NCBI GenBank assembly: GCA_024695665.1
Contig: JAILHT010000003.1
Span: forward strand, 10,870-74,869
Length of the DNA stretch: 64,000 bases
Direction of reading: 5' to 3'
From: Lachnospiraceae bacterium
GTDB taxonomy: Bacteria; Bacillota; Clostridia; Lachnospirales; Lachnospiraceae
A program made the translations under genes and the position numbers. Below the pieces are notes generated by a model. That model searched no databases. It was not told the DNA's origin and saw only the letters and a program-made list of their open reading frames with translations. Below, piece by piece: positions 4,444-54,342 of this stretch (position 1 is the first letter of the stretch; each line of letters opens with the position of its first letter).

Positions 4444-6345
4444 CTAAATATTTAATGATTTTTTCTTGTTCTTTTTCATCTCATACATAGTGTCATCTGC
4501 AAGTTTTATACATTTCTCAATGTCGAATACCTCATCCGGATATACTATGGTTCCTCCGGTTGATATCGTAAGAGGAAAATCTATTTTGTCACTCTCAATG
4601 ATTTCCGAAAGTGACTCCTGCAGTTTCAATTCTATCTCGAGCATCTCCGCTTCGCTCTCACATTTTCCGGTAAGAATAAACTCATCTCCGCCGTATCGTA
4701 TCCCTAACCAATTTTCCGGCAATGTGTTTTTCACGACTTTACCTATAGTCTGGATAGCTTTATCACCCATAAGATGGCCGTATCTGTCATTTATTAGCTT
4801 CATCCTGTCTATATCCATCATAACAAGAGCGCTCAATCCTTTGTTTGTACTGTTTTCAACTATTTTAGGAACCGCCAGATCATTGAATCCGGTTCTGTTA
4901 TATAAACCGGAGACGACATCCGTGTACAGAGCCTCTCTTATCTGTCTGTTCATAAGTTCGATTTTTAAACTCTCATGAACTCTTCCCAACACCTGATTTA
5001 TGGTTCCGTCCCATGATATAAGTTTTCCGTTCATCACAAGATCTATGGAATCGATATACACAGCATAACCGTATATTTTTTCCATGTCGTGTAACGGTGT
5101 AAAAAGGTATGAATGTGGTCTTTTCGATGCCTTTTCATCAAACGGCAACAACTCATATCTGCCTATTTTTTTGACGGTCGGCTCCTGAGTATATTTGTCT
5201 ATATATATGCATGTATAACTGTCATATCCCAATGTTGTATCCAAAAACTCATGAGCTCCGATAGAAGTGAAATACTCGTCGGCAATGCAAATAAACTGCT
5301 TCTCGGATGTGACTTCGACGGTATTTGCAACAGTGTACTTCAGATAATCCAGAAAGTCTTCCATAGTGGCTACTTTTCGCACACTTCTGTTCATCTTCCA
5401 AATCTGCCTATCAAATTCCATCCTCTTCATGGAGGACATAAAATTGTTTTTCACAGCCTCATTTCTCTTAGTTTCGAATAAAGTTTTGTGCTTACATCCG
5501 CAACTCTCAGCTATTCGCATACAGCTGTCAAGTTTTTCTCTGAACGGTACTTCCTCGCCATCCATGATTTTGATGAGTTTTTCCATCCCGGCCATTCCAA
5601 GTTCTTTTCCCTTTCTGTCGACCGTTGTAATCGCCGGCATATACTCATCACTGGACTTTATTCTGTCATATCCTGTGACGATACAGTCGTCCGGAACCTT
5701 GAGTCCGAATGCCTCTATAGCACCGCATGCTCCAAAAGCCATCAAATCACTTCCCGCCATGATAGCATCGGGAACCTCACTATGATTTTTCAGGTACATA
5801 GAAACCATATCAAAAGCTTTGTAGTATGACCAAAGACATTGAACTACATCCTGCTCATCCACTCTCTCTCCGACTTCTGCCAATGCTTTATTTATTCCAC
5901 CCAATCTCTGAGTGTTCTCATCTCCGTCAAAACCGGCAAGATAAATAACTTTTCTCACACCATGTACTTCGATAAGATGCTTTGTCAGATTGTACATTCC
6001 TATTTCATTGTCCGTCTCAATCCCGGGGATTCCATCCAGATTCAGGTCCAAGGTAATCGCTTTTGAATTTGTCTCAAGGACCTCTCTTCTTAATTTTTCG
6101 CAAAGATAATCAGAATTTAAAGAAAATGAAAGGATATATACACCGTCAAAATCTTCAAGCTTCGGAAGATTGTATATAGCCCTCTCCCCGATATTTTCCA
6201 TATCGGTATTCTCCCAAAATGCAAAACTGGCAAAATAATACAAATCTATATCATTTTCCCAGGCAACCTTCTCTATTCCTTCCATTATTCCTGATATAAG
6301 TTCATTTCCGGAATAATCTGCAAATACCGCAACTTTTCTTCTCAT
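4444..6345 (-). CDS. diguanylate cyclase: cytoplasmic PBP-type-I (LacI-like sugar-binding fold) sensor domain fused to a canonical GGDEF domain
   Basis: 633 aa with no signal peptide or TM segment. The N-terminal ~290 aa resemble periplasmic-binding-protein-like I folds. The C-terminus carries DIDRMKLINDRYGH and RYGGDEF. Confidence 0.8.
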   Translation of the reverse strand: MRRKVAVFADYSGNELISGIMEGIEKVAWENDIDLYYFASFAFWENTDMENIGERAIYNLPKLEDFDGVYILSFSLNSDYLCEKLRREVLETNSKAITLDLNLDGIPGIETDNEIGMYNLTKHLIEVHGVRKVIYLAGFDGDENTQRLGGINKALAEVGERVDEQDVVQCLWSYYKAFDMVSMYLKNHSEVPDAIMAGSDLMAFGACGAIEAFGLKVPDDCIVTGYDRIKSSDEYMPAITTVDRKGKELGMAGMEKLIKIMDGEEVPFREKLDSCMRIAESCGCKHKTLFETKRNEAVKNNFMSSMKRMEFDRQIWKMNRSVRKVATMEDFLDYLKYTVANTVEVTSEKQFICIADEYFTSIGAHEFLDTTLGYDSYTCIYIDKYTQEPTVKKIGRYELLPFDEKASKRPHSYLFTPLHDMEKIYGYAVYIDSIDLVMNGKLISWDGTINQVLGRVHESLKIELMNRQIREALYTDVVSGLYNRTGFNDLAVPKIVENSTNKGLSALVMMDIDRMKLINDRYGHLMGDKAIQTIGKVVKNTLPENWLGIRYGGDEFILTGKCESEAEMLEIELKLQESLSEIIESDKIDFPLTISTGGTIVYPDEVFDIEKCIKLADDTMYEMKKNKKKSLNI

Positions 6346-7991: not shown

Positions 7992-8525
7992 TCATTTTCT
8001 GTCCAAATAAACATCACTGACACAGGCTTTTTTCTCTTGCAGACTTTTTTTAACATCGAGAATTCTCTGATTGCTTGACCCTCTGAATTTGAGCATCAAT
8101 TCCTTCTTATCCTCCTCGAATTCACCGTCCACAAGGATATCTAAAAGAGACAGCATCTCCTCTGTAACTTCACAATGAGCTCTGCTGTCTCCATTGATTT
8201 CTTCCCATGTATATCCGGAATAACACCATATGTTTTTGTCCGGGAGTTCATTTCTCACACGTCTTAAAAGGCCTACCAAAACCCTCTCATTCTCAGGTTC
8301 GAACGGCTCTCCCCCGAGCAGTGTCAAACCGTTTATATATGAAGGTTTCAGGGCCTCTATTATAGAATCCTCTGTCTCTTTTGTATATAAAAGACCATAA
8401 TTGAAATCCCATGTCATGTAATTGAAACACCCTTTACAATGATGGGTACAGCCGGACACAAAGAGGCTTACTCTCACTCCCGGTCCGTCTGCAATATCAT
8501 GTTTTTTAATTTCACCGTAATTCAT
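7992..8525 (-). CDS. nrdG: anaerobic ribonucleoside-triphosphate reductase activating protein (radical SAM)
   Basis: 177 aa. CTHHCKGC radical-SAM cluster motif, DGPGVRVSLFVSGC, typical NrdG length. The start lies 2 nt after the aspS stop. Confidence 0.92.
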   Translation of the reverse strand: MNYGEIKKHDIADGPGVRVSLFVSGCTHHCKGCFNYMTWDFNYGLLYTKETEDSIIEALKPSYINGLTLLGGEPFEPENERVLVGLLRRVRNELPDKNIWCYSGYTWEEINGDSRAHCEVTEEMLSLLDILVDGEFEEDKKELMLKFRGSSNQRILDVKKSLQEKKACVSDVYLDRK

Positions 8526-8527
8526 AA

Positions 8528-10291
8528 TCAGTCATCTGTTTTTGGCATATCAATTTTGATATGAACATCTGCGAGCTGTTTTGGATCAACCGTTGCAGGT
8601 GCTCCCATCATAATATCCTGTGCATTCTTATTCATAGGGAACGGAATTATCTCCCTGATACTCTCTTCTCCGGCTATGAGCATAACCATTCTATCAACTC
8701 CCGGTGCAATTCCTGCATGTGGCGGTGCACCGTAGCAGAACGCATTGTACATTGCAGGGAATTTTGCCTTAACATCATCTTCTTTAAGACCTACAATCTC
8801 AAAAGCTCTCACCATGATTTCAGGATCATGATTTCTAACAGCTCCTGAAGAAAGCTCAACACCGTTACATACAAGATCGTACTGGTATGCAAGTATGCTT
8901 AATGGATCGTCTTCATTCAATGCCTTCATTCCACCCTGCGGCATTGAGAAAGGATTGTGACAAAATTCGAGTTCGCCTGACTCTTCTCCAATCTCATACA
9001 TAGGGAAGTCAACTATCCAACAGAACTCAAAGCATTCCTTCTTCATATATCCTTCAAAAGTGTTTCCTATAAGTTTTCTTATAACACCTGAAGTCTTCTG
9101 CGCCGTTCTCAAATCTCCGGCACAAAGGCATACAAAATCATTGTTCTTAAGATTGAGCGCCTTTACGACAGCTTCCTTTCTGTCCTGAACAAACTTTGCA
9201 ATTCCTCCGACTATCTCTCCGTTTTCATCAAGTCTGAACCAATATGCCTTCTGTCCGCTTGTAACCTCAACCTCGGCGCACATCTTGTCAATCTGTTTTC
9301 TTGTTCCCTTGAAGTCTCCGGCAACAACCGCCTTAACCTTGTTTCCTTCAAAAGGTCCGAATCCGCAATCGGATAATACATCTGTCGCATCGCTTACCAA
9401 GAGATTGATTCTAAGGTCCGGTTTGTCCGTACCATATTTATCCATTGCCTCAAGATATGGTATTCTCTTGAAAGGTGGCTTTGATGCCTCCTTATATACT
9501 CCGTATTTTGCAAATACCGGTGGAAGGACATCTTCAAATATTTCAAATACATCCTCCTGGTTTGCAAATGCCATCTCCATATCAAGCTGGTAAAACTCTC
9601 CCGGAGATCTGTCTGCTCTCGCATCCTCGTCTCTGAAACATGGCGCTATCTGGAAATATCTGTCAAATCCCGAAGCCATCAAAAGCTGTTTGAACTGCTG
9701 TGGTGCCTGTGGAAGCGCATAGAATTTTCCCGGATGATTTCTTGCAGGTACAAGATAATCTCTCGCGCCCTCAGGTGATGAACAAGTGAGTATCGGTGTG
9801 GTTATCTCCATGAAGTCATGAGCTATCATTGCTGCTCTCAAATCGGCAACAACCTTGCTTCTGAGTACCATACGTGATTTTACCTCAGGATTTCTGAGAT
9901 CGAGATATCTGTACTTGAGACGTGTATTCTCGTCTGCTTCCTTAGATCTGTTAATCTGGAACGGAAGCTCGTTGTATCTGCATTTTCCGAGAACATTGAG
10001 TTCGCTCGGAACAACTTCTATCTCACCTGTTGCGATATCGTTGTTCTTTGAACTTCTCTCTCTTACAACACCTTTTACTTCAAGTGTCGACTCATAGTTT
10101 ATCCCGGACAACTGCTCCATCATATCCTCAGTCTCAACCACAACCTGGGTTGTTCCGTAGAAATCTCTGAGGATCATGAAACCTAAATTTTTACTTACCT
10201 TTCTCAGATTCTCGTACCAGCCAACTAAAGTTACTTCTTTTCCTGCGTCTGCGAGTCTGAGTTCATTACAATTATGGGTTCTTCCTTGCAT
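8528..10291 (-). CDS. aspS: aspartate--tRNA ligase (bacterial type)
   Basis: 587 aa. N-terminal OB fold (RTHNCNELR...VTLVGW), class II motifs (FRDEDARADR, GGMKAL...), C-terminal GIAPGVDRMVM. Confidence 0.95.
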   Translation of the reverse strand: MQGRTHNCNELRLADAGKEVTLVGWYENLRKVSKNLGFMILRDFYGTTQVVVETEDMMEQLSGINYESTLEVKGVVRERSSKNNDIATGEIEVVPSELNVLGKCRYNELPFQINRSKEADENTRLKYRYLDLRNPEVKSRMVLRSKVVADLRAAMIAHDFMEITTPILTCSSPEGARDYLVPARNHPGKFYALPQAPQQFKQLLMASGFDRYFQIAPCFRDEDARADRSPGEFYQLDMEMAFANQEDVFEIFEDVLPPVFAKYGVYKEASKPPFKRIPYLEAMDKYGTDKPDLRINLLVSDATDVLSDCGFGPFEGNKVKAVVAGDFKGTRKQIDKMCAEVEVTSGQKAYWFRLDENGEIVGGIAKFVQDRKEAVVKALNLKNNDFVCLCAGDLRTAQKTSGVIRKLIGNTFEGYMKKECFEFCWIVDFPMYEIGEESGELEFCHNPFSMPQGGMKALNEDDPLSILAYQYDLVCNGVELSSGAVRNHDPEIMVRAFEIVGLKEDDVKAKFPAMYNAFCYGAPPHAGIAPGVDRMVMLIAGEESIREIIPFPMNKNAQDIMMGAPATVDPKQLADVHIKIDMPKTDD

Positions 10292-10331
10292 TTTTATAAA
10301 CCTCGAATCTTAATTAGAATTAACCTCATAA

Positions 10332-10360
10332 AATATACTAAAATCGGGCGCATATTTCAA
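10332..10360 (-). promoter_or_regulatory. sigma-A-type promoter for aspS-nrdG
   Basis: Minus strand reads TTGAAA (10360-10355), a 17-nt spacer, then TATATT (10337-10332), about 40 nt upstream of the aspS ATG. No T-box-like leader fits in the 150-bp gap. Confidence 0.5.
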
Positions 10361-10364
10361 GGCT

Positions 10365-10400
10365 AAAAAAGCCGAATAGGAGTTTTGTCTCCTTTTCGGC
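10365..10400 (-). terminator. rho-independent terminator of the flagellin-like gene
   Basis: Stem GCCGAA..GGAG / CTCC..TTCGGC followed on the minus strand by UUUUUU (A run 10365-10370 on plus). Confidence 0.7.
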
Positions 10401-10441
10401 CCTAAATAATACATGAATCCGTATGTATAAGATTATGTGTG

Positions 10442-11212
10442 TTAAATTAACATTGAAAAAGTTTTTCTTGCCTTTTCCTCTTCGTCTTTCTGCTCTTGTC
10501 TCTGCTGCATAAGGGAATATGCCATAAGAACTTCCTGCTTCTTCCTCTCCTCCACAGCCTGAGGATAATCCAAATCCTCAATCTGAGAGATTGCCGCTGT
10601 CGAATAATACGCCGAAGAACTATTTACATTCATTGCATATTCAAGTGCATTGTACTGAGCTCCCATAGAGGCTCTGCTGCTTGTTACCATCTCAAGCGCA
10701 TCATCTATCGTAGATATATCAAAATCTCCTGTAACATCAAAATCTGCTATGCCAAGAGCTTCCAAAGTAGCATCTGCGGTTGAAACGGTTGTTGTAGAAC
10801 CTTCCGCATCGGTTGCAATCTCGTAATCCGTATCTGTTCCGTCAAGCAATGTGTGAGTATTGTAGGTGGTCTGAGATGCCACATCTGCTATGCCCTGCTT
10901 GAGCTGATCTATCTCATCCTGTATAGCCTGAAGATCGGAATCACTGAGCAGTGCAGAATTTGATGCCTGAAGTGCAAGCTCTCTGATTCTCTGAAGATAC
11001 TCTGTTATTGAAGCTGCCGCAGAATCCGAAATATTAAGCATATCCTGCGCTGAAGCCATATTGTCCGTTCCGACATTTAGACCGTTTACATATGCGTTTT
11101 CTTCTTCTACGATTGAAAGTCCTGCAGCATCATCCGCTGCCGAATTGATACGACTTCCGCTTGCTAAAGATGCGTAACTTCCGTATGAACTTATGCTCGA
11201 TATTCCACTCAT
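10442..11212 (-). CDS. short flagellin-like protein with conserved D1 segments and shortened/divergent D0 termini
   Basis: 256 aa. SRINSAADDAAGLSI, LQRIRELALQASN and DEIDQLKQGI match the flagellin N-domain. SSRASMGAQYNALEYA matches the C-domain. The N-terminus is ~15-20 aa shorter than usual flagellins, and the C-terminal helix is highly charged (QQRQEQKDEEEKARK). Confidence 0.75.
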   Translation of the reverse strand: MSGISSISSYGSYASLASGSRINSAADDAAGLSIVEEENAYVNGLNVGTDNMASAQDMLNISDSAAASITEYLQRIRELALQASNSALLSDSDLQAIQDEIDQLKQGIADVASQTTYNTHTLLDGTDTDYEIATDAEGSTTTVSTADATLEALGIADFDVTGDFDISTIDDALEMVTSSRASMGAQYNALEYAMNVNSSSAYYSTAAISQIEDLDYPQAVEERKKQEVLMAYSLMQQRQEQKDEEEKARKTFSMLI

Positions 11213-11255
11213 AATAATCCTTTCTTAATTGTTGCAGACTATAACCATGATAGGT

Positions 11256-11287
11256 AAAAAAGGAAGCATCTCTGCCGTGATGCTCCC
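11256..11287 (-). terminator. intrinsic terminator acting as the riboswitch expression platform
   Basis: Minus strand reads GGGAGCAUC-ACGGCAGA-GAUGCUUCC-UUUUUU: a 9-bp stem with one G-U pair plus U6. It lies 18 nt after the aptamer and 43 nt before the flagellin-like ATG. Confidence 0.75.
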
Positions 11288-11305
11288 TTACAATTCTTGT
11301 CTAAA

Positions 11306-11369
11306 CTGCAACTGGCTGCCATCATCAGGCCCTATAGCTTTGCGTCACAAGCTTTCGCTTGCTTTGCCG
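11306..11369 (-). promoter_or_regulatory. c-di-GMP-I (GEMM-I) riboswitch aptamer
   Basis: Minus strand reads CGGCAAAGCAAGCGAAAGCUUGUGACGCAAAGCUAUAGGGCCUGAUGAUGGCAGCCAGUUGCAG. It shows P1 CGGCAA/UUGCAG, a hairpin capped by a GAAA tetraloop, the hallmark GACGCAAAGC junction, and a second helix ending AGCCAGUUGC. The order and spacing match Vc2 (GGCAAACC..GAAA..GGGACGCAAAGCC..). Confidence 0.8.
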
Positions 11370-11390
11370 ATTAACATTTATTTCTCCTTT

Positions 11391-11419
11391 AAAATATAAT
11401 GCAAATCCCTATAAGTCAA
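11391..11419 (-). promoter_or_regulatory. sigma-A-type promoter of the riboswitch/flagellin-like unit
   Basis: Minus strand reads TTGACT (11419-11414), a 15-17 nt spacer, then a TATATT/TATTTT block (11398-11391). No sigma-28 (TAAA-N15-GCCGATAA) motif appears in this orientation. Confidence 0.5.
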
Positions 11420-11494
11420 GCCAGTTCGCAGAATTTTCACAATTTCGTTATTAGTCTTTTTCAAAATCGTCTTCCCAGACCGATAAAAACGCTT

Positions 11495-13702
11495 TTACAA
11501 ATGAAGTACTCTATCCTGTATCTCCTGCGTTCTTCCTTGGTTCCAGAACTGTGTTCCTATGTAACCACAGGTTCTTCTGGCAACATTCATCTTGTTCTCA
11601 TCTCTGTTTTTGCAATTCGGACACTCCCAAATCAGTTTTCCGTGGTCATCCTTTACAATAGTTATCTCTCCGTCATATCCGCAGACCTGACAGTAATCAC
11701 TCTTTGTATTGAGTTCGGCATACATAATATTGTCATAGATGAACTGCATAACAGAAAGAACGGCGTCTATATTGTCCTTCATGTCCGGTACTTCTATATA
11801 ACTGATAGCTCCTCCCGGGGAAAGCTTCTGGAACTGTGACTCAAAAGCAAGCTTCTCAAAAGCGTCTATCTCCTCGGTGACATGTACATGATAACTGTTT
11901 GTTATATAATTCTTGTCTGTGACATGAGGAATAACACCAAATCTCTTCTGAAGTGACTTTGCAAATTTGTATGTTGTAGACTCAAGCGGCGTTCCATACA
12001 CACTGAAATCTATATCTGTATCTGCTTTCCACTTTGCACATGCATCATTTAATTTCTGCATTACTGCGAGAGCAAACTCAGTTCCCTCCTTCTCTGTATG
12101 AGACTTTCCTGTCATATAATATGTACATTCCGAAAGGCCTGCGTATCCGAGAGATATTGTCGAATATCCACCAAATAAAAGCTTGTCGATAGTCTCTCCC
12201 TTTTTGAGTCTGGCTAGTGCTCCGTACTGCCAAAGTATAGGAGCAACATCTGAAGGAGTTCCCATAAGTCTGTTGTGTCTTGCCATCAACGCTCTGTAGC
12301 AAAGATCCAGCCTCTCATCAAATATCTTCCAGAACTCTTTTTCATCTTTTCGTGAACTGCATGCTATATCCACAAGGTTCAATGTGACAACACCCTGGTT
12401 GAATCTTCCGTAATATTTTCCTTTGTTCGGATCCCAATTCAGCGCTCCTGCAAGGTTCTCGGTTGTACGATCCGGTGTGAGGAACGAACGACATCCCATA
12501 CAAGCGTATACTGTACCCTTTCCGGTCTTGTCTACCTTAAGTTCCTTCATGACCTTCTCTGAGATATAGTCCGGAACCATTCTCTTTGCAGTGCATTTTG
12601 CGGCAAGTTTTGTGAGTTCCCAATACTCGCTTCCCTCTGTGATATTGTCCTCCTCGAGAACATATATAAGCTTAGGGAATGCAGGTGTTATATAAACACC
12701 GGCCTCGTTCTTTACACCTTTTATTCTCTGATGAAGAACTTCCTCTATAACCATTGCAAGATCTTTCCTTGTCTGTGGATCCTCAGCCTCGTTGAGATAC
12801 ATGAAAACAGTTACGAAAGGAGCCTGTCCGTTTGTTGTCATAAGTGTTATAACCTGGTACTGAATCATCTGTACGCCGCGGTTTATCTCATCTCTTACTC
12901 TCTCCTCGGCAATCTCGTTTATCTGCTCCTCGGTGAGAGTGATTCCGGCTTCCTCGTGCTCCTCCTTTACCTCTCTTCTGAATTTGTGTCTGCTGACATC
13001 AACAAATGGTGCGAGATCGGCAAGTGAAATACTCTGTCCTCCGTACTGTGAGCTGGCTATCTGAGCAATAATCTGTGTGGCAATATTGCAGGCTGTCGAG
13101 AAGCTGTGCGGTCTCTCAATCATAGTTCCGCTTATTACCGTACCGTTTTCAAGCATATCGGAAAGATTTACAAGACAACAGTTGTGCATATGCTGAGCAT
13201 AATAATCCGAATCATGAAAATGTATGATTCCCTGCTCATGTGCCTCAACAATATCCGGTGGCAACAAAAATCTCTTGGTGATATCTTTGCTGACCTCTCC
13301 GGCCATATAATCTCTCTGTACACTGTTTACAGTCGGATTCTTGTTCGAATTCTCCTGTTTTACTTCCTCATTATCAAACTCAAGAAGGCTTAATATCTGC
13401 TGATCTGTAGAATTTGCCTTACGTAGAAGTTCATGTTTATATCTGTATGTTATATATTTTCTGGCAACGGCATAAGCCTGCTGTCTCATTATCTCATTCT
13501 CAACCATATCCTGGATTTCTTCCACGTTCATGGCTCTGTGCATATGACTGCATATATCATGTATATTATCAAGAATCTCTTTTATCTGAGCTTCACTGAG
13601 TCGTTCTGTAGCAACAACCGTATCGTTGGCTTTTTCAATGGCGCTCTTGATTTTTCCCAAATCGTAATCAACTTCCGCACCGCTTCGCTTTATAATCTTC
13701 AT
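11495..13702 (-). CDS. nrdD: anaerobic ribonucleoside-triphosphate reductase (class III)
   Basis: ATP-cone N-terminus (MKIIKRSGAEVDYDLGKIKSAIEKA), C-terminal Zn-ribbon CQVCGY...CPNCKN and glycyl-radical motif RRTCGYIG. I place the start at ATG 13702 (GGGAAAGG RBS). The track start at 13765 lies inside the promoter/NrdR boxes. Confidence 0.93.
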   Translation of the reverse strand: MKIIKRSGAEVDYDLGKIKSAIEKANDTVVATERLSEAQIKEILDNIHDICSHMHRAMNVEEIQDMVENEIMRQQAYAVARKYITYRYKHELLRKANSTDQQILSLLEFDNEEVKQENSNKNPTVNSVQRDYMAGEVSKDITKRFLLPPDIVEAHEQGIIHFHDSDYYAQHMHNCCLVNLSDMLENGTVISGTMIERPHSFSTACNIATQIIAQIASSQYGGQSISLADLAPFVDVSRHKFRREVKEEHEEAGITLTEEQINEIAEERVRDEINRGVQMIQYQVITLMTTNGQAPFVTVFMYLNEAEDPQTRKDLAMVIEEVLHQRIKGVKNEAGVYITPAFPKLIYVLEEDNITEGSEYWELTKLAAKCTAKRMVPDYISEKVMKELKVDKTGKGTVYACMGCRSFLTPDRTTENLAGALNWDPNKGKYYGRFNQGVVTLNLVDIACSSRKDEKEFWKIFDERLDLCYRALMARHNRLMGTPSDVAPILWQYGALARLKKGETIDKLLFGGYSTISLGYAGLSECTYYMTGKSHTEKEGTEFALAVMQKLNDACAKWKADTDIDFSVYGTPLESTTYKFAKSLQKRFGVIPHVTDKNYITNSYHVHVTEEIDAFEKLAFESQFQKLSPGGAISYIEVPDMKDNIDAVLSVMQFIYDNIMYAELNTKSDYCQVCGYDGEITIVKDDHGKLIWECPNCKNRDENKMNVARRTCGYIGTQFWNQGRTQEIQDRVLHL

Positions 13703-13753
13703 AATACTTAAACCTTTCCCTAAAAGACTCTCTTTATTATTTCCACGAAAGAT

Positions 13754-13804
13754 ATAATACCACATATAGTATGTATGGTCAATCTTAAAAACTAGATATG
13801 GTAC
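13754..13804 (-). promoter_or_regulatory. nrdD promoter overlapped by two tandem NrdR boxes
   Basis: Minus strand reads TTGACC (13782-13777), 17 nt, TATTAT (13759-13754). Box B ATACTATATGTGGTAT (13772-13757) matches 12/16 positions of acaCwAtATaTwGtgt. Box A GTACCATATCTAGTTT (13804-13789) matches about 10/16. Box centres are 32 bp apart, the classic NrdR tandem spacing. Confidence 0.6.
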
Positions 13805-18269: not shown

Positions 18270-20540
18270 CTATTCATTTAAATACATATCTTCAAAACGC
18301 GCTATTTCCATTGACTTTGAGAAGAAGTTTCCCGAGAAGATATCACATCCCACTCGTTTTAAAAATTTCATCTGATCATAAGTCTCGACGCCCTTACATG
18401 CAACGGTTATGCCCAGCTCTTTTGACATTTGTATCATTGCGGTAAGAATACTTCTCGCTCTCTCATCATCTGCATTTCCCAAAAATCCGATATCGAGTTT
18501 TAATACGTTTAATGTTGCATATTTTAATAGTCTAAGTGAGGACTCTCCCGTTCCAAAATCTGACATTGCAACATCTATTCCATATCCCTGAAAACGCTTA
18601 ATTACATCTGCCTGTCTGTCAACCTCAGTCATGACAGAGTCCTCGGAAATGGTTACCTTTATATTCTTGGAAGGTATCTCGTATTTTTCACAAAGTTCGG
18701 TTATGACCTCAAACGAATCCATCATATACAAATCCTTGGTGGAAATCTTTAATGCCAAAAACAAATCGTCTCTTCCCATATCGATCCATCTTCTCAGATA
18801 GACACAGGCCTTTTCCCACACATATCGGTCAAGCCTGTATGTGAGTCCTTTTTCCTCAAGTACCGGGACAAATCCCGATTCCGTTATGAGCCCCTTTTCC
18901 GGATGCATCCAACATGCGGATATCTCGCCACCCTTGATATCTCCTGCGGAGTCGGTCTGCGGTTCGACAATCAGACCAATCTGTCCGGTCTCAATCGCAT
19001 CATAAATCTCTGTTTCAATGTTCTGAGCCTGAAGCATGTCTTCTGTGACAGTCTCATCATAAAATGCCACTACTCTGTCTCTGGACCCTTTTATTGTCTG
19101 TATTGCAGCAAAAGCATTGTCACACATTACCTGAGGGTTTACATTTTTGTCATTGATCCTGTAAATACCGGCATAAAATCTTATATTATACGCATACTCT
19201 TTGGCAAGCTTTATCTCATTTACCCTCTCTTTGTTAAACATATTCATAGAGAATCGTTCAGCAGGCATAAGAAGCGCAAAACGATCTGCCCCGAGATATC
19301 CGTATACGTAACCTTTTATCGCATATTCTTTAAAAAGGGATGCGACAAAACGGAGAACCTCATCACCGGCCTCCTGGCCAAACAGTTTATTTATCAACCT
19401 GAATCTGTAAATATCAATTCCAAGCAAAAGATAATCTTTGTCCGGGAACGCCTCAAGCTCCTCTTTCACCCTGATATAGAAATAGTCTTTTCTGTATAAC
19501 CCTGTAAGTGGGTCATGCATCGTATTATATCTTTCCTGCTCACGCTTGATAACATCTTTTGTCTCATCCTTAAGCATATAGAGATTACCGATATAATTGC
19601 CTTCTTTATCGGTTATACGATTGAATTTCATATCATAATAGATTCTCTCGCCGTCTTCCGTGTCGAGATAATTGTGAATCTGGCGTACATCCATCTTCTC
19701 GTACTGGTTTGATATTCTCCAGTTCTCAATGATCATATTGAGTTCCGGTGTCTTTGCCAGAAAATTCTTTGCGCTGGCATTTGAGAAAATCCTTCTTCCG
19801 TCATCTTCCTCTATAACAATACCGTATACCGACTTGTCAACAACCAGTCCCATCGTGTTGTTTATAAGCCCTTTCGGGATATATCTTATACAGAAATAAT
19901 AAAGTACGGCAGCGACTACTGTATAAAGCGGAACTGACAGATTAAACTCCCATCCGTAGAAAATATAACATCCGTCAAAGAAGCCCACCGCGGTCATAAC
20001 AACCAGCATAAAGAAAAACTTTTTTCTGTATATTGCAGCGGAAAGAAAAGTCTTATAAACCATACAGAACACGCTCATGAGTATAATTATATACGCCCAG
20101 GTAAGATGCGTGAAAAATGCAGGTTTAAGTTCCATTACGTACCAGAAAAAATCTCCACCCTCAATGCATTTTTTCAGTGTAAACAGATGTCCCGTAAACA
20201 TATTTAAGACAAGCGATGCCGAATCCAGCATGATAAGGCTTATCATAATATTCTTTTTTAGGAGCGGATGATCGGGTTCTCCGATATAATCCAGACTGAA
20301 CAATAACAGATAATATCCCAGCCATTCCGTGGCTACAAGATACAGGCAATATGCAACGGACGACAAATAGATCTGCGTGCTCAAAGCTATGATGACATGG
20401 CAGATCTCAACTATAAGTCCGGCACCCATCAATTTGAGCACACTATTTGGAAAATATTGTCTTCGGTTTTTGATGCTGCTTACAAGTCCGATTAAGACGG
20501 ATATGGCAACAATAAGTAATATAAGAAAAGATACTCTCAA
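18270..20540 (-). CDS. polytopic membrane protein with degenerate GGDEF and degenerate EAL domains
   Basis: 756 aa with an N-terminal ~230 aa multi-TM region. The GGDEF position reads GADRF (YGYLGADRFALL). In the EAL domain, EAL reads EIS, DDFGTG reads SDFGTG, EGVE reads KGVE and QG reads SG, while the KxD (KLD) motif is kept. TTG start 20540 overlaps the clpX stop and is preceded by GAGGG. Confidence 0.8.
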   Translation of the reverse strand: MRVSFLILLIVAISVLIGLVSSIKNRRQYFPNSVLKLMGAGLIVEICHVIIALSTQIYLSSVAYCLYLVATEWLGYYLLLFSLDYIGEPDHPLLKKNIMISLIMLDSASLVLNMFTGHLFTLKKCIEGGDFFWYVMELKPAFFTHLTWAYIIILMSVFCMVYKTFLSAAIYRKKFFFMLVVMTAVGFFDGCYIFYGWEFNLSVPLYTVVAAVLYYFCIRYIPKGLINNTMGLVVDKSVYGIVIEEDDGRRIFSNASAKNFLAKTPELNMIIENWRISNQYEKMDVRQIHNYLDTEDGERIYYDMKFNRITDKEGNYIGNLYMLKDETKDVIKREQERYNTMHDPLTGLYRKDYFYIRVKEELEAFPDKDYLLLGIDIYRFRLINKLFGQEAGDEVLRFVASLFKEYAIKGYVYGYLGADRFALLMPAERFSMNMFNKERVNEIKLAKEYAYNIRFYAGIYRINDKNVNPQVMCDNAFAAIQTIKGSRDRVVAFYDETVTEDMLQAQNIETEIYDAIETGQIGLIVEPQTDSAGDIKGGEISACWMHPEKGLITESGFVPVLEEKGLTYRLDRYVWEKACVYLRRWIDMGRDDLFLALKISTKDLYMMDSFEVITELCEKYEIPSKNIKVTISEDSVMTEVDRQADVIKRFQGYGIDVAMSDFGTGESSLRLLKYATLNVLKLDIGFLGNADDERARSILTAMIQMSKELGITVACKGVETYDQMKFLKRVGCDIFSGNFFSKSMEIARFEDMYLNE

Positions 20541-25633: not shown

Positions 25634-25732
25634 TCCCTGTTCTTATATTTTAATTGCTTCTCTTATATTATAATAAATTTATGATATAATACACTTGTGT
25701 ATTTATATTTTTATTGTTGGGGGGATAGCATT

Positions 25733-26785
25733 ATGAAAAAAATTGTCTTTTCCATGTTTTTGTTTTTTTCAATACTGTTTATACCGTATCAAACCTACGC
25801 TTCAGACTCTGACTGGCGGATAACGGATTTAAGTTGCGACTCATTGGATGACGATGGTTGTATTTATTTATCCTGGACTGCATGCAGTGCTAACGGACAT
25901 GAATGGAGTGTTGATGATTACGGTTATGCACTGATCTATCGTTCCACAAAAAAATCCTCAGGTTACAAGCAAATAGATTCAGTCGATATTTTTGACGAAT
26001 CATATTACGATTATAGCGTCAAAAATAACAAAACATATTATTACTATATCATAGCTGATGGAACGATATTCTATGCTGATGATGAAGACAACGAAAGCTA
26101 TTACGATGTTTTATCGACAAAATCCAATATAGTTCACGGCAAAGTAATAAAGACACTTGATCCTCCAAAACTAAAAGGTAACGTCCAGGGTAATTCAAAG
26201 TATAGTATCAAACTATCTTGGAATAAAATAAAAGAAGCCAAGGGATACAAAATTTACCGAAAATCTCCCGGTTCCGGTAAATATAAGCTCATTAAAACAA
26301 TCAAAAAAAATACTACGCTTTCATATACCGATAAAAATCTAAAGCTAAAAAAAAGATATAAGTATTATATTGTTTCTTATAACGACTATACAACGAGCAA
26401 AAAAAGTTCCGTACTATCACGTAAAATTACAGCCAACTGCATAAAATACCGTGTAGATAAAGATCTTTCAAATTACGATTTTTATAATATTTATCTTAGA
26501 CCATATAAGATTTATTATAAGAATAAAAAAATCACTGCCGAGTTCTATGTTTTTAATAAATACTCCTATAAACTTAAACGATTTAAATCTATACAGGTGA
26601 ATCTGTATGATGAAAACAAAAAACTCATAGCCAGACAACGTTTCAAAAATATTGAGTTGAATCTCTCCGGCAATAATTATAAAAAGGTCAAGTTTACATT
26701 TACAAAAGGTACAAAGAAGAAGAAAGTTAATTTTAGAGATTTTGACGGCTATTACTCATGGTCATCTTCCAATAGCTGGGAATAA
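25733..26785 (+). CDS. secreted K/Y/N-rich protein with two FN3-like modules
   Basis: ATG 25733 after a GGGGGGA RBS. Signal peptide MKKIVFSMFLFFSILFIPYQTYASD. Two modules follow the pattern LSW...GY.IYR(S/K)...YK.I....Y.D....K.Y.YYI. The DNA is visibly AT-rich. Confidence 0.6.
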   Translation: MKKIVFSMFLFFSILFIPYQTYASDSDWRITDLSCDSLDDDGCIYLSWTACSANGHEWSVDDYGYALIYRSTKKSSGYKQIDSVDIFDESYYDYSVKNNKTYYYYIIADGTIFYADDEDNESYYDVLSTKSNIVHGKVIKTLDPPKLKGNVQGNSKYSIKLSWNKIKEAKGYKIYRKSPGSGKYKLIKTIKKNTTLSYTDKNLKLKKRYKYYIVSYNDYTTSKKSSVLSRKITANCIKYRVDKDLSNYDFYNIYLRPYKIYYKNKKITAEFYVFNKYSYKLKRFKSIQVNLYDENKKLIARQRFKNIELNLSGNNYKKVKFTFTKGTKKKKVNFRDFDGYYSWSSSNSWE

Positions 26786-38518: not shown

Positions 38519-39157
38519 CTAAAGCATCGAATAGCCAAAACCGTTGACCATAGCTTCAATCTTCATTCCCCTCTTGCAATACGGACATTCAGATACCGGA
38601 TATGCGGCATATCCGATTATATCATTCTCATCGAATATATGATTCACAGGGAAACCGCTCACCTGGTTTACCGTACTGAATATAGAGCATACTGCCTCAA
38701 CCTCTCCACCATAATATCTTATAGCTTCAAGTGAATTGAATACAGAGTTTCCCGTAGTGGTTGTAGCCATAAGAAGAATGACATGTTTTCCGGTTATGGC
38801 GCCTTTGTTATTGTCTCTGAAAATTATCTGATTTCCATTTGATTCAGGAGATATGACATATATGGTATCATGCTGGTTCATTGTCTGATAGTCTGATTTT
38901 ACAAACTCCTCAGCAAGAAAAGCACCTATCATCTCCGTTCCGTCAAGGCAAACGATGGTATCTACGTAAATACCTGTTATTATCTTTGACGCAAGGAGTT
39001 TTGCAGCATCTTTCGCCTCACTCAGACGAGTCTTAAGGCTGGTAATATCAATGTAGTAATTGATATGTGAGTTGGTGGTCGCAAAATGTCCTGACGCCGC
39101 ATGAATCGCAACTTTGTTGCTCTCCTTTGAAAAGTATTTTACCATCCTGTTCTCCAT
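38519..39157 (-). CDS. phosphoribosyltransferase-fold protein with a degenerate PRPP loop
   Basis: 212 aa. The PRT-type loop HVILLMATTTTGNS lacks the usual acidic pair (xxDDxxTTG). C-terminal CPYC. Strong GGAGGG RBS 17 nt after the dut stop. Confidence 0.5.
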   Translation of the reverse strand: MENRMVKYFSKESNKVAIHAASGHFATTNSHINYYIDITSLKTRLSEAKDAAKLLASKIITGIYVDTIVCLDGTEMIGAFLAEEFVKSDYQTMNQHDTIYVISPESNGNQIIFRDNNKGAITGKHVILLMATTTTGNSVFNSLEAIRYYGGEVEAVCSIFSTVNQVSGFPVNHIFDENDIIGYAAYPVSECPYCKRGMKIEAMVNGFGYSML

Positions 39158-50568: not shown

Positions 50569-51951
50569 TTAATCTGATTCATAGACGATAACATTGTCCG
50601 AAAGTCTTAATCTGTAGACAACTCCGGCTATAGCTCTGTCAACGATATAATTTATTCCATTTATATGTATATTGACACCCGGATGGATAACTCCTGTGAT
50701 ATGAACCTTGCTCTCTCTTTTAGCATGTTCCATAAGAAGTTTTATCGGATCCATCTCCTCGTGAAGTCTCGCCTGCTCGGAGCTCACGACAACCTTTGCC
50801 CTCATAACCTTCGCTCTGACGTCCACAATTTCTTTAGCAGGGTTTGATACCCCATCCAACGTCCTCTGATGCTGCTCTAAGGTTCTTAATTTCTCCTCAA
50901 GTTCCTTAAGCTGAAGCTCCATATCATGGACTCTTCTTATCTCTTCTCTAGGAACTCCGGACTGTAGAATAGTAGGCATCTCACTGTCATTTCCGGCCTC
51001 TTTAACCGTCACTCCCAACATACCACATATATTAGACCCTATAACAACACCCCTGCTGGCATTTACTACCACATGTCCCCTTGCTATAACCGTTGAATGC
51101 AGTATGGAATCAGCATATACATTCTCATTTGCTTCAATCCTGCATCTTTCAACGAACTTACAAGTCACAGTTCCGTTAGCTTTCAGTATTCCCTGGTCTT
51201 TACTCTGAACGCCCTTTGAAATTGTAATATTTTTCTTCGATAAGACTTTAGCGGCTCCGACATGGCCATGTATAAAAACATCTCCGTCGGCATCTATCAT
51301 CATACCACTTCTGACATCGCCGGTAACTATAACATCACCATTGAAAACAATATTTCCGCTCTCAATATCAACATCCCCGTTGATCTGAAAGAGCTTTTCT
51401 ATCTTGTAGGATGATCCGCTTTCAACGACATGTCCTGCATACTCCGCTGTATATTCGCCGCTTTCTGCATCAAAGAGTATTCCCTTGCCATGCAAAGTAC
51501 GAAGCTCTTTACCGGGTTTTGGGGCTACCATCTGTGTATATACATCAAAACCATACTGTCCGGAAGTAGGTTTTGTATATGTAGCCAAAAGATCCCCCTC
51601 TTTAACTATAGCTAATTGCAGAGAATTCTTATAGTCAACCGTACCATCCTCACGAATGATAGGTTTCTTTTTTGTGTCATTGACATCAATTTTAAAATCT
51701 ATAATACCATCAAGACCATCTATTGGTGCTTTTCCTCTGGCAACCACAACTTCTTCATTGTAATTTGCCCCATCAATAAGGTATTTTATAGCATCACAAT
51801 CAGGATTTACCTTTACACCTTCTGCAAAAAGCAAATCCTTTACCATTCCTTCAGTAATATTGAAAACAACACCTACAGGAGGCTCTTTTTTTGATATGGT
51901 TGCAGTCATTTTATCAGCCGATACAGACACAACACCCCATTCGCTTTCCAT
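50569..51951 (-). CDS. FapA-family (DUF342) protein
   Basis: Beta-helix-like repeats (GNIVFNGDVIVTGDV..., GDVFIHGHVG...) and a C-terminal coiled coil. The start is moved to ATG 51951 (AGAGGGAG RBS); the track start at 52011 lacks an RBS. Confidence 0.75.
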   Translation of the reverse strand: MESEWGVVSVSADKMTATISKKEPPVGVVFNITEGMVKDLLFAEGVKVNPDCDAIKYLIDGANYNEEVVVARGKAPIDGLDGIIDFKIDVNDTKKKPIIREDGTVDYKNSLQLAIVKEGDLLATYTKPTSGQYGFDVYTQMVAPKPGKELRTLHGKGILFDAESGEYTAEYAGHVVESGSSYKIEKLFQINGDVDIESGNIVFNGDVIVTGDVRSGMMIDADGDVFIHGHVGAAKVLSKKNITISKGVQSKDQGILKANGTVTCKFVERCRIEANENVYADSILHSTVIARGHVVVNASRGVVIGSNICGMLGVTVKEAGNDSEMPTILQSGVPREEIRRVHDMELQLKELEEKLRTLEQHQRTLDGVSNPAKEIVDVRAKVMRAKVVVSSEQARLHEEMDPIKLLMEHAKRESKVHITGVIHPGVNIHINGINYIVDRAIAGVVYRLRLSDNVIVYESD

Positions 51952-52048
51952 ACTCTTGCTCCCTCTTGTAGAACAAATACTAGGATAATTGTACCATATA
52001 TAAATATCCATGTAAAACCATTTTGCTTCAAGTTCCTTTCAAGATTTC

Positions 52049-52338: not shown

Positions 52339-54342
52339 CTATGCCCTCACATCAAAAGAATACCTGTGAACTCTTGTCGATGACGTCCCTTCTTCGTTCT
52401 TCAAAAAATCGTCAACAAAACTGATATCCTTTTTATCATTTTTTATATTTATAATCGTATTATATCCGAGGCTTTCCAATCTATCCTGCAAAAGAGGAAG
52501 ATTCTTTTCTATTAGATCATAGGACTTGTCATCCTCCAAATAGAAATTTGTGGTGACATTCTTTTTTAACATCTTAATAAATACATCGGTTGACCCCAAA
52601 TGCTCCATATCAAGATGAAGATAAGCCGTAACCTCATTCTCAGGATTCATAAGATTTTTCTTGTTTGTCATGACATAAAGCTCACTGTTCACATTTTGCC
52701 CGGACATTTTTAAAGGTATCTGAACAAAACTGTAAGCCTGGTTGACATCATTCATAAAACTTATGTTGGCCCTGGTCTCCTGAACCATCTGATTCATCTC
52801 TTTTGTCACAGGGGATTTGTCGGCCAAAAGCTCCTCAAGTTTGCCGAGCTGCTTGTCCATTCTGTTGTATAGCTCACCGACCTTGTCCTTCTCTTTTAGT
52901 TCCTCCGGCTTTACTGTCCAGGATTTGTCCAAAGTCTCGGCAAATAGTTTTCTGAACTCCTTGCCGGATACAAGCTTTGCAAGTTTTTCAATCGACGCAT
53001 CCGACTCGAATGCATTCTTAATTTCACTCATCAGTCTATCAGAGGTCATAAGAGAAGCATCATTTTTTCCGGAAGTGAAATCTTTTCCGGTTATCTCTGT
53101 CAACATTCGTCCGATAGCAGCCTTGTCCTCCAACGTCAACTCTGATGTACCGGTGCTGTTTGCAGCGTTTGTACTATTTGTATTACCAGACTCATCTATG
53201 GCTCTTGCGTCGTTCTTTCCTGCCAAGTTGTCGGCATTTAACGCCTGTTCCTCAACAACAGACTCCGTGTTTGCATTCTGAATGGCATTTAATGCAGCAC
53301 TTATCTTATCATTTACAGAATCTCCTGCATTGCCTACTGATGTCATGCTTTCTTTTTGACCGGCGGATGCTATTTCATCCGACATATCCGTGATTACAAC
53401 TTTTTCGTTACCGGTCTCCTTAATTGTATCTGTCATACCCGTGGTAGCACCTTCCAATGTGCTTCCCGATACATTTTCAGAAACGCCTCCTGATGCACTT
53501 TCCGATGCACTCCCAGATACAGTTTCAGATACACTTTGAGGTAAATTTTCGACAGTCGTCTCTGTCAACACTCCAATCTCTCCCTCGACAACCGCAGCCT
53601 GCATTCCTTCTGGATTTTGTTCCGCAGCACCTGCTACAACCTCATCCGGATAAAAAATATCAAGCATTCCTTTCGAGAGATTTACCATCTCCTCCATAGA
53701 CATATTTCCGGATTCAAAAGCTTTAGGAAGATTTTCTATAAGAGAATTCAATTGATTTGTTATTTCGAATTTATCTGCCGAATAATTGATAAACTGAGCG
53801 ATATTTGTCTCATTTACCGGAATCCCAAGTTTTTGCATAGATACAGCAGTAGCCACCTGTGTGTCAGGCAGATTTGCGATTGTAGATGCCATCTGCTGTA
53901 AAGAATTTTTGTCTATCGACATAGATTCGTTCATCATGCTGTAAACCATGGTGAGATTTTTTCCGTTCACAGTAAGGCCCGCTGACTCCAATGCATTTTC
54001 AAGCATAGGGTTTCCCATAATATTGCCGGTATATGGCCTTATTGCTATCTGTCCTGAAGAGTTTGCCTTCACTTCAAAAAATATACTCTCGCCCTGAACA
54101 AGAGTAATATCTGAGTCAAGTCTGGCATTGACAGTCTGGCCATTGCTCAATCCAAGTGTTACAACACCATCTTTTATACTGTTTATGCTGCCTTCAAAAA
54201 CACTTCCGACAGGAAGGTTGGACAAGCTGTTAACGGCTGCTCTCACCGTCTGGCCGACATTTGACGTGTCCGCCGTCTGCGGTGTGTTCACAGACTTATT
54301 CCCGCTGTATGTATTGAGCATGTCATTAATCTGCATTGTCAA
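52339..54342 (-). CDS. FliK-like (flagellar hook-length control C-terminal domain) protein, YlqG-position
   Basis: 667 aa. Low-complexity centre and a C-terminal region (VQIPLKMSGQNVNSELYVM...AYLHLDMEHLGSTDVFIKM...LQDRLESLGY) resembling the Flg_hook domain. GAGGGGGA RBS. The stop lies 2 nt before the FlhB-C-like start. Confidence 0.6.
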   Translation of the reverse strand: MTMQINDMLNTYSGNKSVNTPQTADTSNVGQTVRAAVNSLSNLPVGSVFEGSINSIKDGVVTLGLSNGQTVNARLDSDITLVQGESIFFEVKANSSGQIAIRPYTGNIMGNPMLENALESAGLTVNGKNLTMVYSMMNESMSIDKNSLQQMASTIANLPDTQVATAVSMQKLGIPVNETNIAQFINYSADKFEITNQLNSLIENLPKAFESGNMSMEEMVNLSKGMLDIFYPDEVVAGAAEQNPEGMQAAVVEGEIGVLTETTVENLPQSVSETVSGSASESASGGVSENVSGSTLEGATTGMTDTIKETGNEKVVITDMSDEIASAGQKESMTSVGNAGDSVNDKISAALNAIQNANTESVVEEQALNADNLAGKNDARAIDESGNTNSTNAANSTGTSELTLEDKAAIGRMLTEITGKDFTSGKNDASLMTSDRLMSEIKNAFESDASIEKLAKLVSGKEFRKLFAETLDKSWTVKPEELKEKDKVGELYNRMDKQLGKLEELLADKSPVTKEMNQMVQETRANISFMNDVNQAYSFVQIPLKMSGQNVNSELYVMTNKKNLMNPENEVTAYLHLDMEHLGSTDVFIKMLKKNVTTNFYLEDDKSYDLIEKNLPLLQDRLESLGYNTIINIKNDKKDISFVDDFLKNEEGTSSTRVHRYSFDVRA

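Follow-up and report, generated by a model that had tools for sequence, protein, structure and literature searches.

We analyzed a 64,000-nucleotide stretch of DNA from a Lachnospiraceae bacterium (assembly GCA_024695665.1, contig JAILHT010000003.1, positions 10,870 to 74,869 of the forward strand; hereafter the window) and found a cyclic di-GMP (c-di-GMP) riboswitch aptamer of the GEMM-I, or c-di-GMP-I, class in front of a gene for a short, atypical flagellin homologue. Our preferred reading, to which we give a probability of roughly 0.7, is that this element is a canonical, tetraloop-type GEMM-I riboswitch in the 5' leader of a monocistronic gene and that it switches the gene OFF by transcription attenuation. 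An earlier note on this DNA had proposed the riboswitch and left ON or OFF undecided; we reasoned that the answer is OFF, from a candidate antiterminator with a conserved counterpart in L081, the one relative sharing the locus. The sequence and distances given in that note were exact on the minus strand, where 11369-11306 reads CGGCAAAGCAAGCGAAAGCUUGUGACGCAAAGCUAUAGGGCCUGAUGAUGGCAGCCAGUUGCAG. Positions below are those of the window, and the elements of the leader and its gene are all read on the minus strand.

To begin with the aptamer, we scanned the whole window against all 4227 Rfam families (cmscan). The c-di-GMP-I family, RF01051, matched 11378-11304 over the full model (positions 1-87); the match scored 60.5 bits, where 35 is the gathering score, with E = 2.4e-9 across the whole window. 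No other family in the 64 kb reached its own gathering score. When 10200-11600 was rescanned permissively at E ≤ 1, no further RNA family came up, for example no T-box for the neighboring aspS gene. Alignment to the family consensus agreed with the assignment, and the earlier claim of a canonical GEMM-I aptamer was borne out. Every defining feature of the family that can be tested by sequence is present in the window aptamer, which is predicted to bind c-di-GMP selectively.

The conserved core of the aptamer (11304-11378) appears in the consensus alignment in the expected order of the family: the junction GGCAAA, a first hairpin of six pairs (11362-11347) capped by a GAAA loop (11356-11353), ACGCAAAGC, and a second, irregular hairpin (11339-11310). 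The predicted tetraloop-receptor bulges of the second hairpin, AUA and AG, also align with the consensus, consistent with a type I architecture. In the Vibrio cholerae Vc2 aptamer, the ligand-contact nucleotides are G20, A47, and C92 (PMC4744006). Their equivalents by alignment are G 11368, A 11341, and C 11308; the spacing from the G to the A contact is 27 nt in the window, as in Vc2 and Vc1 (PMC4744006), and a C at alignment column 73 is kept in at least 90% of 41 relatives. One structural detail had to be revised. A "closing helix CGGCAA/UUGCAG" had been described, which clashes with the family consensus and is not the P1 helix of the family: GGCAAA and GACGC pair through their GC dinucleotides, and the second hairpin includes the UU of AGUU. 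Because its nucleotides are used in the two hairpins, this helix has no place in the family structure. A weak outer helix is possible, formed by UGUU/GACA in the window and by AUUUG/UAAAU in L081.

We also considered a leader peptide. Within 11345-11390, an AUG preceded at 6 nt by a Shine-Dalgarno-like AAAGGAG begins a 10-codon reading frame (MLIGKASESL, 11377-11345) that overlaps the 5' half of the aptamer. This arrangement has no counterpart in L081, and we rejected it as a probable chance occurrence.

The secondary structure of the aptamer was supported by covariation. A pattern derived from the 3' half of the aptamer retrieved at least 120 loci from gut, rumen, and fermenter metagenomes. 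In the 41 distinct related aptamers, 97.6% of cells were paired in the consensus structure, and all six pairs of the first, GNRA-capped hairpin covaried, with changes on both sides. The covariation score was 0.384 compared with 0.121 for shuffled alignments, and none of 500 shuffles reached the observed value. The invariance of the second hairpin among these relatives is partly an effect of the search pattern.

Next to the aptamer, we observed the other parts of an attenuation leader in a scan for promoters and terminators that covered 10200-11800. Upstream lies TTGACT-N17-TATTTT (11419-11391), with 9 of 12 matches to the consensus. The -35 element, TTGACT (11419-11414), forms with a block just upstream of it, AAATTGTGAAA..TGCGAACTG, a segment (11414-11445) that is conserved in L081. 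The -10 region (11391-11398) can be read either as TATTTT (11396-11391), with a 17-nt spacer, or as TATATT (11398-11393), with a 15-nt spacer; L081 has TATAAA/TAAATT in its place. The promoter site described in the earlier note is present, and its -35 element and upstream block are conserved in L081, but the consensus match alone does not exceed chance. We regard the promoter as plausible, credible through conservation and not through the consensus match alone, and transcription would start near 11384. The block directly 5' of the -35 element, AAATTGTGAAA(N4)TGCGAACTG (11422-11445), is kept in L081 while the surrounding intergenic DNA has diverged, and it may serve as a binding site for a regulator or as an UP-like element.

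Downstream of the aptamer, the scan found an intrinsic terminator (11256-11289) with an 11-bp stem (AAGGGAGCAUC / GAUGCUUCCUU), an 8-nt loop, and a U6 tract at 11261-11256. It was the sole terminator-like site reported in the scanned region, and its hairpin alone folds at -15.7 kcal/mol. The terminator stem, GGGAGCAUC, begins at 11287, 18 nt past 11306 and 22 nt past GGCAGCCAG, and the terminator shares no nucleotides with the aptamer. Both the separate terminator and the 43 nt from its U tract to the ATG (11212-11210) were as previously described. A Shine-Dalgarno sequence, AAAGGA (11218-11223), precedes the ATG by 5 nt and is conserved in L081. Behind the gene, a second intrinsic terminator, GCCGAAAAGGAG..CUCCUAUUCGGC followed by U6 (10365-10400), was read directly from the sequence; the scan missed it because of an internal mismatch in its stem. 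A promoter-like site for aspS follows at 10360-10332. Since the flagellin-like unit has its own downstream terminator and aspS has a separate promoter-like site, the unit is monocistronic.

L081 was the only other genome in which we found the same arrangement. Its protein is 77% identical, the gene order degV-folC-nrdD-gene-aspS-nrdG-htrA-GGDEF is fully syntenic, and the aptamer is at the same place. When the intergenic regions of the window and L081 were aligned, four conserved islands stood out amid unalignable sequence. The first is AAATTGTGAAA..TGCGAACTG..TTGAC with the -10 region. The second is the aptamer, whose sole internal difference is a compensatory change from an A-U to a G-C pair in the GAAA hairpin. 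The third is the terminator core, AGCATCACGG..GATGCTT, with the L081 terminator at the same position, and the fourth is the ribosome-binding site with the start codon. These islands support a dedicated promoter and a functional leader. A Logan contig, L084, is a second source of the same locus; it is identical save for one 1-nt gap and adds no information. Two differences between the loci were also seen. At 5858-5900, L081 carries a perfect 17-bp palindromic hairpin, UUGUUGCAUAGGAAAUC-UUCG-GAUUUCCUAUGCAACAA, where the window has CUGCAAC, and its leader is longer by ~115 nt; between the flagellin-like gene and aspS, the spacer measures 790 nt in L081 (6780-7572) and 150 nt in the window.

To address how the aptamer might communicate with the terminator, we folded the nascent transcripts of the window and of L081 up to the terminator loop, that is, before the 3' arm of the terminator exists. 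In both, the minimum-energy nascent fold paired 11330-11320 with 11282-11274. The first strand, GCCUGAUGAUG (11320-11330), is made up of the second aptamer hairpin's 5' strand and its loop, and the second, or switching, strand, CAUCACGGC (11274-11282), is the top of the terminator 5' arm and its loop. In the same fold, pairing also joins the aptamer's 3' end to the spacer. This alternative fold was predicted at -29.4 kcal/mol, compared with about -21 kcal/mol for the ligand-free aptamer fold, and is thus better by ~8 kcal/mol at that length. For the full leader, the order was reversed, with -36.9 kcal/mol for the terminator fold and about -27 kcal/mol for the antiterminator fold. The sequence GCAUCACGG is conserved at nine of nine positions in L081 inside an otherwise diverged spacer, and the L081 antiterminator duplex had z = -1.46 against dinucleotide shuffles. 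The earlier note had seen no obvious antiterminator; folding does yield a candidate, conserved in L081, although it is not significant for the window alone (z = -0.43).

Other leaders of the same aptamer subtype pointed in the same direction. Independent aptamers showed the same design with other sequences: CUGAUAAUG/CAUUAUCAG in L126, CCUGAUAAUG/CAUUAUCGGG in L167, and GCAGCCAGU/ACUGGCUGC in L131/L189. In L126 and L167, the loop UGAUAAU pairs with CAUUAUC, and in the window its counterpart UGAUGAU pairs with CAUCA. Across 27 leaders with separate terminators, the complementarity between the aptamer and the terminator 5' arm exceeded that of dinucleotide shuffles (mean z = -0.68, t-test p = 0.004), and 6 of the 27 fell below z = -1.64 (binomial p = 0.002).

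From these elements, we propose the following switch. Transcription would start at the sigma-A-type promoter near 11384. At low c-di-GMP, the emerging 5' arm and loop of the terminator would invade the weak second aptamer hairpin (GCCUGAUGAUG with CAUCACGGC) and the 3' end of the aptamer would pair with the spacer; this transient antiterminator would permit read-through, and the gene would be expressed. At high c-di-GMP, the ligand would lock the two aptamer hairpins together and leave the terminator 5' arm free, so that the 11-bp terminator with its U6 tract would form and transcription would end at ~11256. We reasoned that the switch is OFF rather than ON because the terminator shares no nucleotides with the aptamer, and a locked aptamer leaves the terminator free. 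Precedent agrees with this direction: the Cdi-1-3 (Cd1) riboswitch before Clostridioides difficile flgB terminates transcription upon c-di-GMP binding (PMC6200980, PMC9262584), and most class I switches of C. difficile are negative (PMC6200980).

Several observations weigh against an OFF switch of this kind. The window duplex, at -13.4 kcal/mol, is scarcely distinguishable from its dinucleotide shuffles at -12.4 kcal/mol (z = -0.43), 33% of which equal it. The locus is found in two genomes only, with near-identical aptamers, which makes a covariation test of the antiterminator impossible. The core antiterminator leaves the lower 7 bp of the terminator stem uncovered, and only an extra, weak, G-U-rich helix with the spacer takes them in. 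The terminator fold is 9-13 kcal/mol stabler than the antiterminator fold; given this difference, switching must be kinetic. Upstream, promoter-like sites in this AT-rich region occur no less often than expected by chance (7 found, 4.3 expected), and no strong terminator follows nrdD, so that read-through from nrdD is possible. Finally, some class I riboswitches are ON switches (Cdi-1-1) or appear locked (Bc1) (PMC6200980, PMC11218506). We treat the antiterminator as a candidate because its z score in the window is not significant and only two genomes carry the locus; it is plausible, and not statistically significant at the window locus alone.

Of the alternatives, an ON switch built from the same aptamer and terminator, in which c-di-GMP would favor read-through and induce the flagellin-like protein, is unlikely. 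Such switches do exist: Cdi-1-1 of C. difficile is induced 13- to 32-fold (PMC6200980), and in the related leaders L101 and L164 the terminator 5' arm is the aptamer 3' end. In the window, by contrast, the terminator starts 22 nt past the aptamer, and the absence of shared nucleotides means that a ligand-locked aptamer leaves it free. Constrained folds gave no alternative structure that a bound aptamer could stabilize at the expense of the terminator, and the layout fits the aptamer-then-separate-terminator order of the OFF switch Cd1 (PMC9262584). The weakness of the proposed antiterminator at this locus still speaks for an ON switch, as does the possibility that the target is no motility protein, in which case the rule that c-di-GMP represses motility need not hold.

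We also think it quite improbable that the terminator is largely constitutive, serving nrdD as well, and that the output of the aptamer is a stable short leader RNA, mRNA stability, or translation through a GUUGCAG/CUGCAAC helix. The 9-13 kcal/mol advantage of the terminator over any antiterminator fold would suit such a leader, but an equilibrium-stabler terminator is normal in kinetic OFF switches (PMC9262584). Bc1 seems locked OFF in vivo (PMC11218506), and Vc2 is reported to govern how stable an upstream small RNA is (bioRxiv 10.1101/617340). The scan detected no terminator between nrdD and the leader, as expected if the leader terminator were shared; the conserved promoter block, on the other hand, favors a dedicated transcript. 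As to translation, when the whole leader is folded, GUUGCAG binds CUGCAAC just 5' of the ribosome-binding site in the minimum-energy structure, but the Shine-Dalgarno sequence is sequestered in no predicted fold, and the sequence from terminator to ribosome-binding site is different and much longer in L081, where the long-range helix is not clearly conserved. The two strands, GUUGCAG at 11312-11306 and CUGCAAC at 11237-11231, are perfect 7-nt complements and bracket the terminator.

Least probable is another ligand, 3',3'-cGAMP or that of a variant class: Geobacter GEMM-I aptamers reportedly sense cGAMP (Kellenberger and colleagues, 2015) and the best clan match of L081 is RF03167, the c-di-GMP-I-GGC variant (52.7 bits, under its cutoff of 59), but cGAMP-selective aptamers carry an A at the G20-equivalent position, where the window and L081 both keep G, and RF01051 wins the clan competition in the window with its 60.5 bits. 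The GGC variant was itself rejected as an assignment, since it needs a G at the A47 equivalent (consensus ACGCGAA) and both sequences read ACGCAAA.

The gene that the OFF riboswitch would control (10442-11212) encodes a 256-aa, FliC5-like flagellin homologue, which we identified from its reading frame, Pfam domains, alignment, and an AlphaFold2 model. Flagellin_N (88.9 bits) and Flagellin_C (30.9 bits) were both over their Pfam cutoffs, and the neighbors are nrdD and aspS; this is a single short flagellin-family gene outside any flagellar operon, as the earlier note had it. The D1 core is intact, with a predicted local distance difference test (pLDDT) score above 90 in the D1 region, and the protein is closest, in sequence and in fold, to filament flagellins of Bacillus subtilis and Roseburia hominis (for the latter, PDB 9hpz, 35% identity and a TM-score of 0.69). 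The ends of the protein are unusual. About 14 N-terminal D0 residues are missing: the Pfam profile is matched only from position 27 on, and Hag residue 23 is the counterpart of residue 9. An in-frame TAA 15 nt ahead of the ATG precludes a start codon farther upstream, and the short N-terminus is common to the whole family. Residues 1-26 are rich in Ser, Gly, and Tyr and predicted to be disordered (pLDDT < 50). Most family members have DGAAEL in place of DDAAGL, and throughout the family a charged, KKKQEEE-type tail replaces the usual Gln/Asn-rich D0 helix at the C-terminus. The NCBIfam flagellin models did not reach their cutoffs with this protein (best 109 bits of the 352 for the Hag subfamily; FlgL, 93 of 127).

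The family is large and consists of ~256-aa proteins of gut and rumen Lachnospiraceae, some of which NCBI labels "flagellin FliC5". We discarded that name as a functional clue; its use in the literature is confined to Bdellovibrio and other unrelated flagellins, and it is uninformative here. Upstream of the orthologues, the genes have sigma-A-like promoters and short leaders, and the sigma-D -10 motif CCGATA was found in only 3 of 37. The orthologue neighborhoods that we examined held unrelated genes and no flagellar ones, and the family was never seen in flagellar operons. Two papers on Lachnospiraceae flagellins (PMC3720852; bioRxiv 10.1101/2025.07.18.665615) mention neither the short family nor a riboswitch. 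Tentatively, the protein may not be a filament subunit at all and may instead belong to a distinct, flagellin-derived Lachnospiraceae family with another role, of which one rumen lineage recently gained a GEMM-I leader. We entertain this because a D1 core is combined with the lack of the N-terminal D0 helix, a charged tail, housekeeping-type promoters, and a gene that always stands alone. Such a protein could be secreted or displayed on the surface, or it could act as a decoy or partner of flagellin chaperones or regulators. If so, the riboswitch would be a functional clue that places the protein in the choice between a motile and a sessile lifestyle.

We then asked how far the pairing of riboswitch and gene extends, using 80 orthologous loci from species-representative genomes (44-64% identity). 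Rfam searches at gathering score upstream of the 20 closest, and a regular-expression search for the core motif in all 80, found a c-di-GMP-I aptamer at none of them, and the nrdD/aspS synteny was likewise seen in 0 of 80. A further locus at 64% identity, L082, had no aptamer even at E < 0.1. The distribution indicates that the pairing of riboswitch and gene is young and lineage-specific. A different, locally conserved neighborhood was noted in Roseburia: in the loci L002, L008, L010, L012, and L015, from metagenome-assembled genomes, a ribosomal protein L10 leader (rplJ-rplL) precedes the FliC5-like orthologue by 1.2-3.6 kb.

The wider aptamer subtype showed a similar picture from the other side. 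Behind the other subtype aptamers, no flagellin gene was present among the 120 metagenome matches listed; among these, most aptamers precede signal-peptide proteins, and one precedes a FlgB-like protein. In L126, L131/L189, and L167, same-subtype aptamers stand before a conserved glycine-rich protein of ~200-240 aa (MGFLKSLGSFAGKVVGG...), apparently a recurring part of the c-di-GMP regulon of those bacteria.

In the window, nrdD (11495-13765) lies upstream of the flagellin-like gene, and aspS (8528-10291), nrdG (7992-8525), an HtrA-like protease, and a sensor diguanylate cyclase lie downstream. The riboswitch-flagellin unit and aspS thus separate nrdD from its activase gene nrdG, which begins where aspS ends. 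In two metagenome relatives, L173 and L088 (nrdD 71-86% identical), nrdD directly adjoins nrdG, which suggests an insertion of the flagellin-like gene and aspS between the two. At distances of up to 15 kb from the riboswitch lie genes for two c-di-GMP turnover proteins: a GGDEF protein with a fused periplasmic-binding-protein-like sensor (4444-6345, minus strand), which is syntenic in L081, and a seven-transmembrane GGDEF-EAL protein (18270-20540, minus strand). On the evidence of these two genes, the organism clearly makes use of c-di-GMP.

There is no flagellar operon within the 64-kb window. Besides the flagellin-like gene, its only flagellum-related genes encode a FapA-family protein (50569-52011, minus strand) and a 667-aa protein that carries a FliK hook-length-control domain at its C-terminus (52339-54342, minus strand). 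Their neighbors are housekeeping genes (RNase HII, a ylqF-like GTPase, signal peptidase, trmD, rimM, and ffh), and the FliK-like and FapA-like proteins are a weak sign that the organism is flagellated. Three further open reading frames had no Pfam match at E ≤ 1e-5: 61032-63272 (minus strand, 746 aa), 25697-26785 (plus strand, 362 aa), and 38519-39157 (minus strand, 212 aa).

Overall, this is a genuine but ordinary class I c-di-GMP riboswitch, a textbook example of a well-characterized class. Control of Clostridia motility genes by c-di-GMP-I riboswitches is already established (PMC6200980, PMC9262584), and one more example of a class that is thoroughly characterized and automatically detectable alone changes little. 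It may be of modest value in two ways. The leader offers a compact, natural layout of the Cd1 OFF type, with ~130 nt from the predicted start to the U tract, that would be handy for studies of co-transcriptional folding. It also appears to be an instance in which a single lineage recently acquired a c-di-GMP riboswitch for a gene that elsewhere has orthologues with plain promoters, and this provides a regulatory hint on an uncharacterized, widespread family of truncated flagellin homologues in gut and rumen Lachnospiraceae, bacteria whose flagellins are of immunological interest. The target protein family is the least ordinary element of the system.

Among known systems, the closest is Cd1 (Cdi-1-3) in the flgB leader of C. 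difficile. The aptamer class is the same, the host is also a member of the Clostridia, and the target is flagella-related (PMC6200980, PMC9262584). Cd1 is an experimentally established OFF switch in which the aptamer is followed by the switching strand and then the terminator strand (PMC9262584). The window leader likewise consists of aptamer, spacer, and separate intrinsic terminator, and the same logic is predicted for it, with c-di-GMP causing premature termination. Cd1 forms a transient antiterminator while the terminator is thermodynamically preferred (PMC9262584), and the predicted window folds behave alike. The two differ in what they control: Cd1 cooperates with an invertible DNA switch in governing a 23-kb early flagellar operon with sigD among its genes, whereas the window element, known here from its sequence, precedes one stand-alone, atypical flagellin gene. 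The expression platform differs as well, with ~50 nt from aptamer to U tract in the window compared with a decision point at ~nt 148 in Cd1.

Bc1, of the Bacillus cereus group, is also a type I GEMM-I element with a GAAA tetraloop; rho-independent termination follows the aptamer, and the gene downstream is repressed (PMC11218506). However, Bc1 has a 220-nt platform with two terminators, is seemingly locked OFF in vivo, and is modulated by Zur, whereas the window leader has a single terminator and a short platform. Vc2, in the tfoY leader of Vibrio cholerae, shares the core GGCAAA, the GNRA hairpin, ACGCAAAGC, and the G20/A47/C92 contacts (PMC4744006), but it is without such an intrinsic terminator platform, comes from another phylum, and precedes another target gene. 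For the protein, the nearest structural likeness is the Roseburia hominis flagellin (PDB 9hpz), likewise a minimal D0-D1 protein of ~260-270 aa. Compared with the filament flagellins of Lachnospiraceae, the window protein and its family start ~14 residues later with a disordered Ser/Gly/Tyr N-terminus, mostly carry DGAAEL, end in a KKKQEEE-type tail, and are encoded behind sigma-A-like promoters outside flagellar loci.

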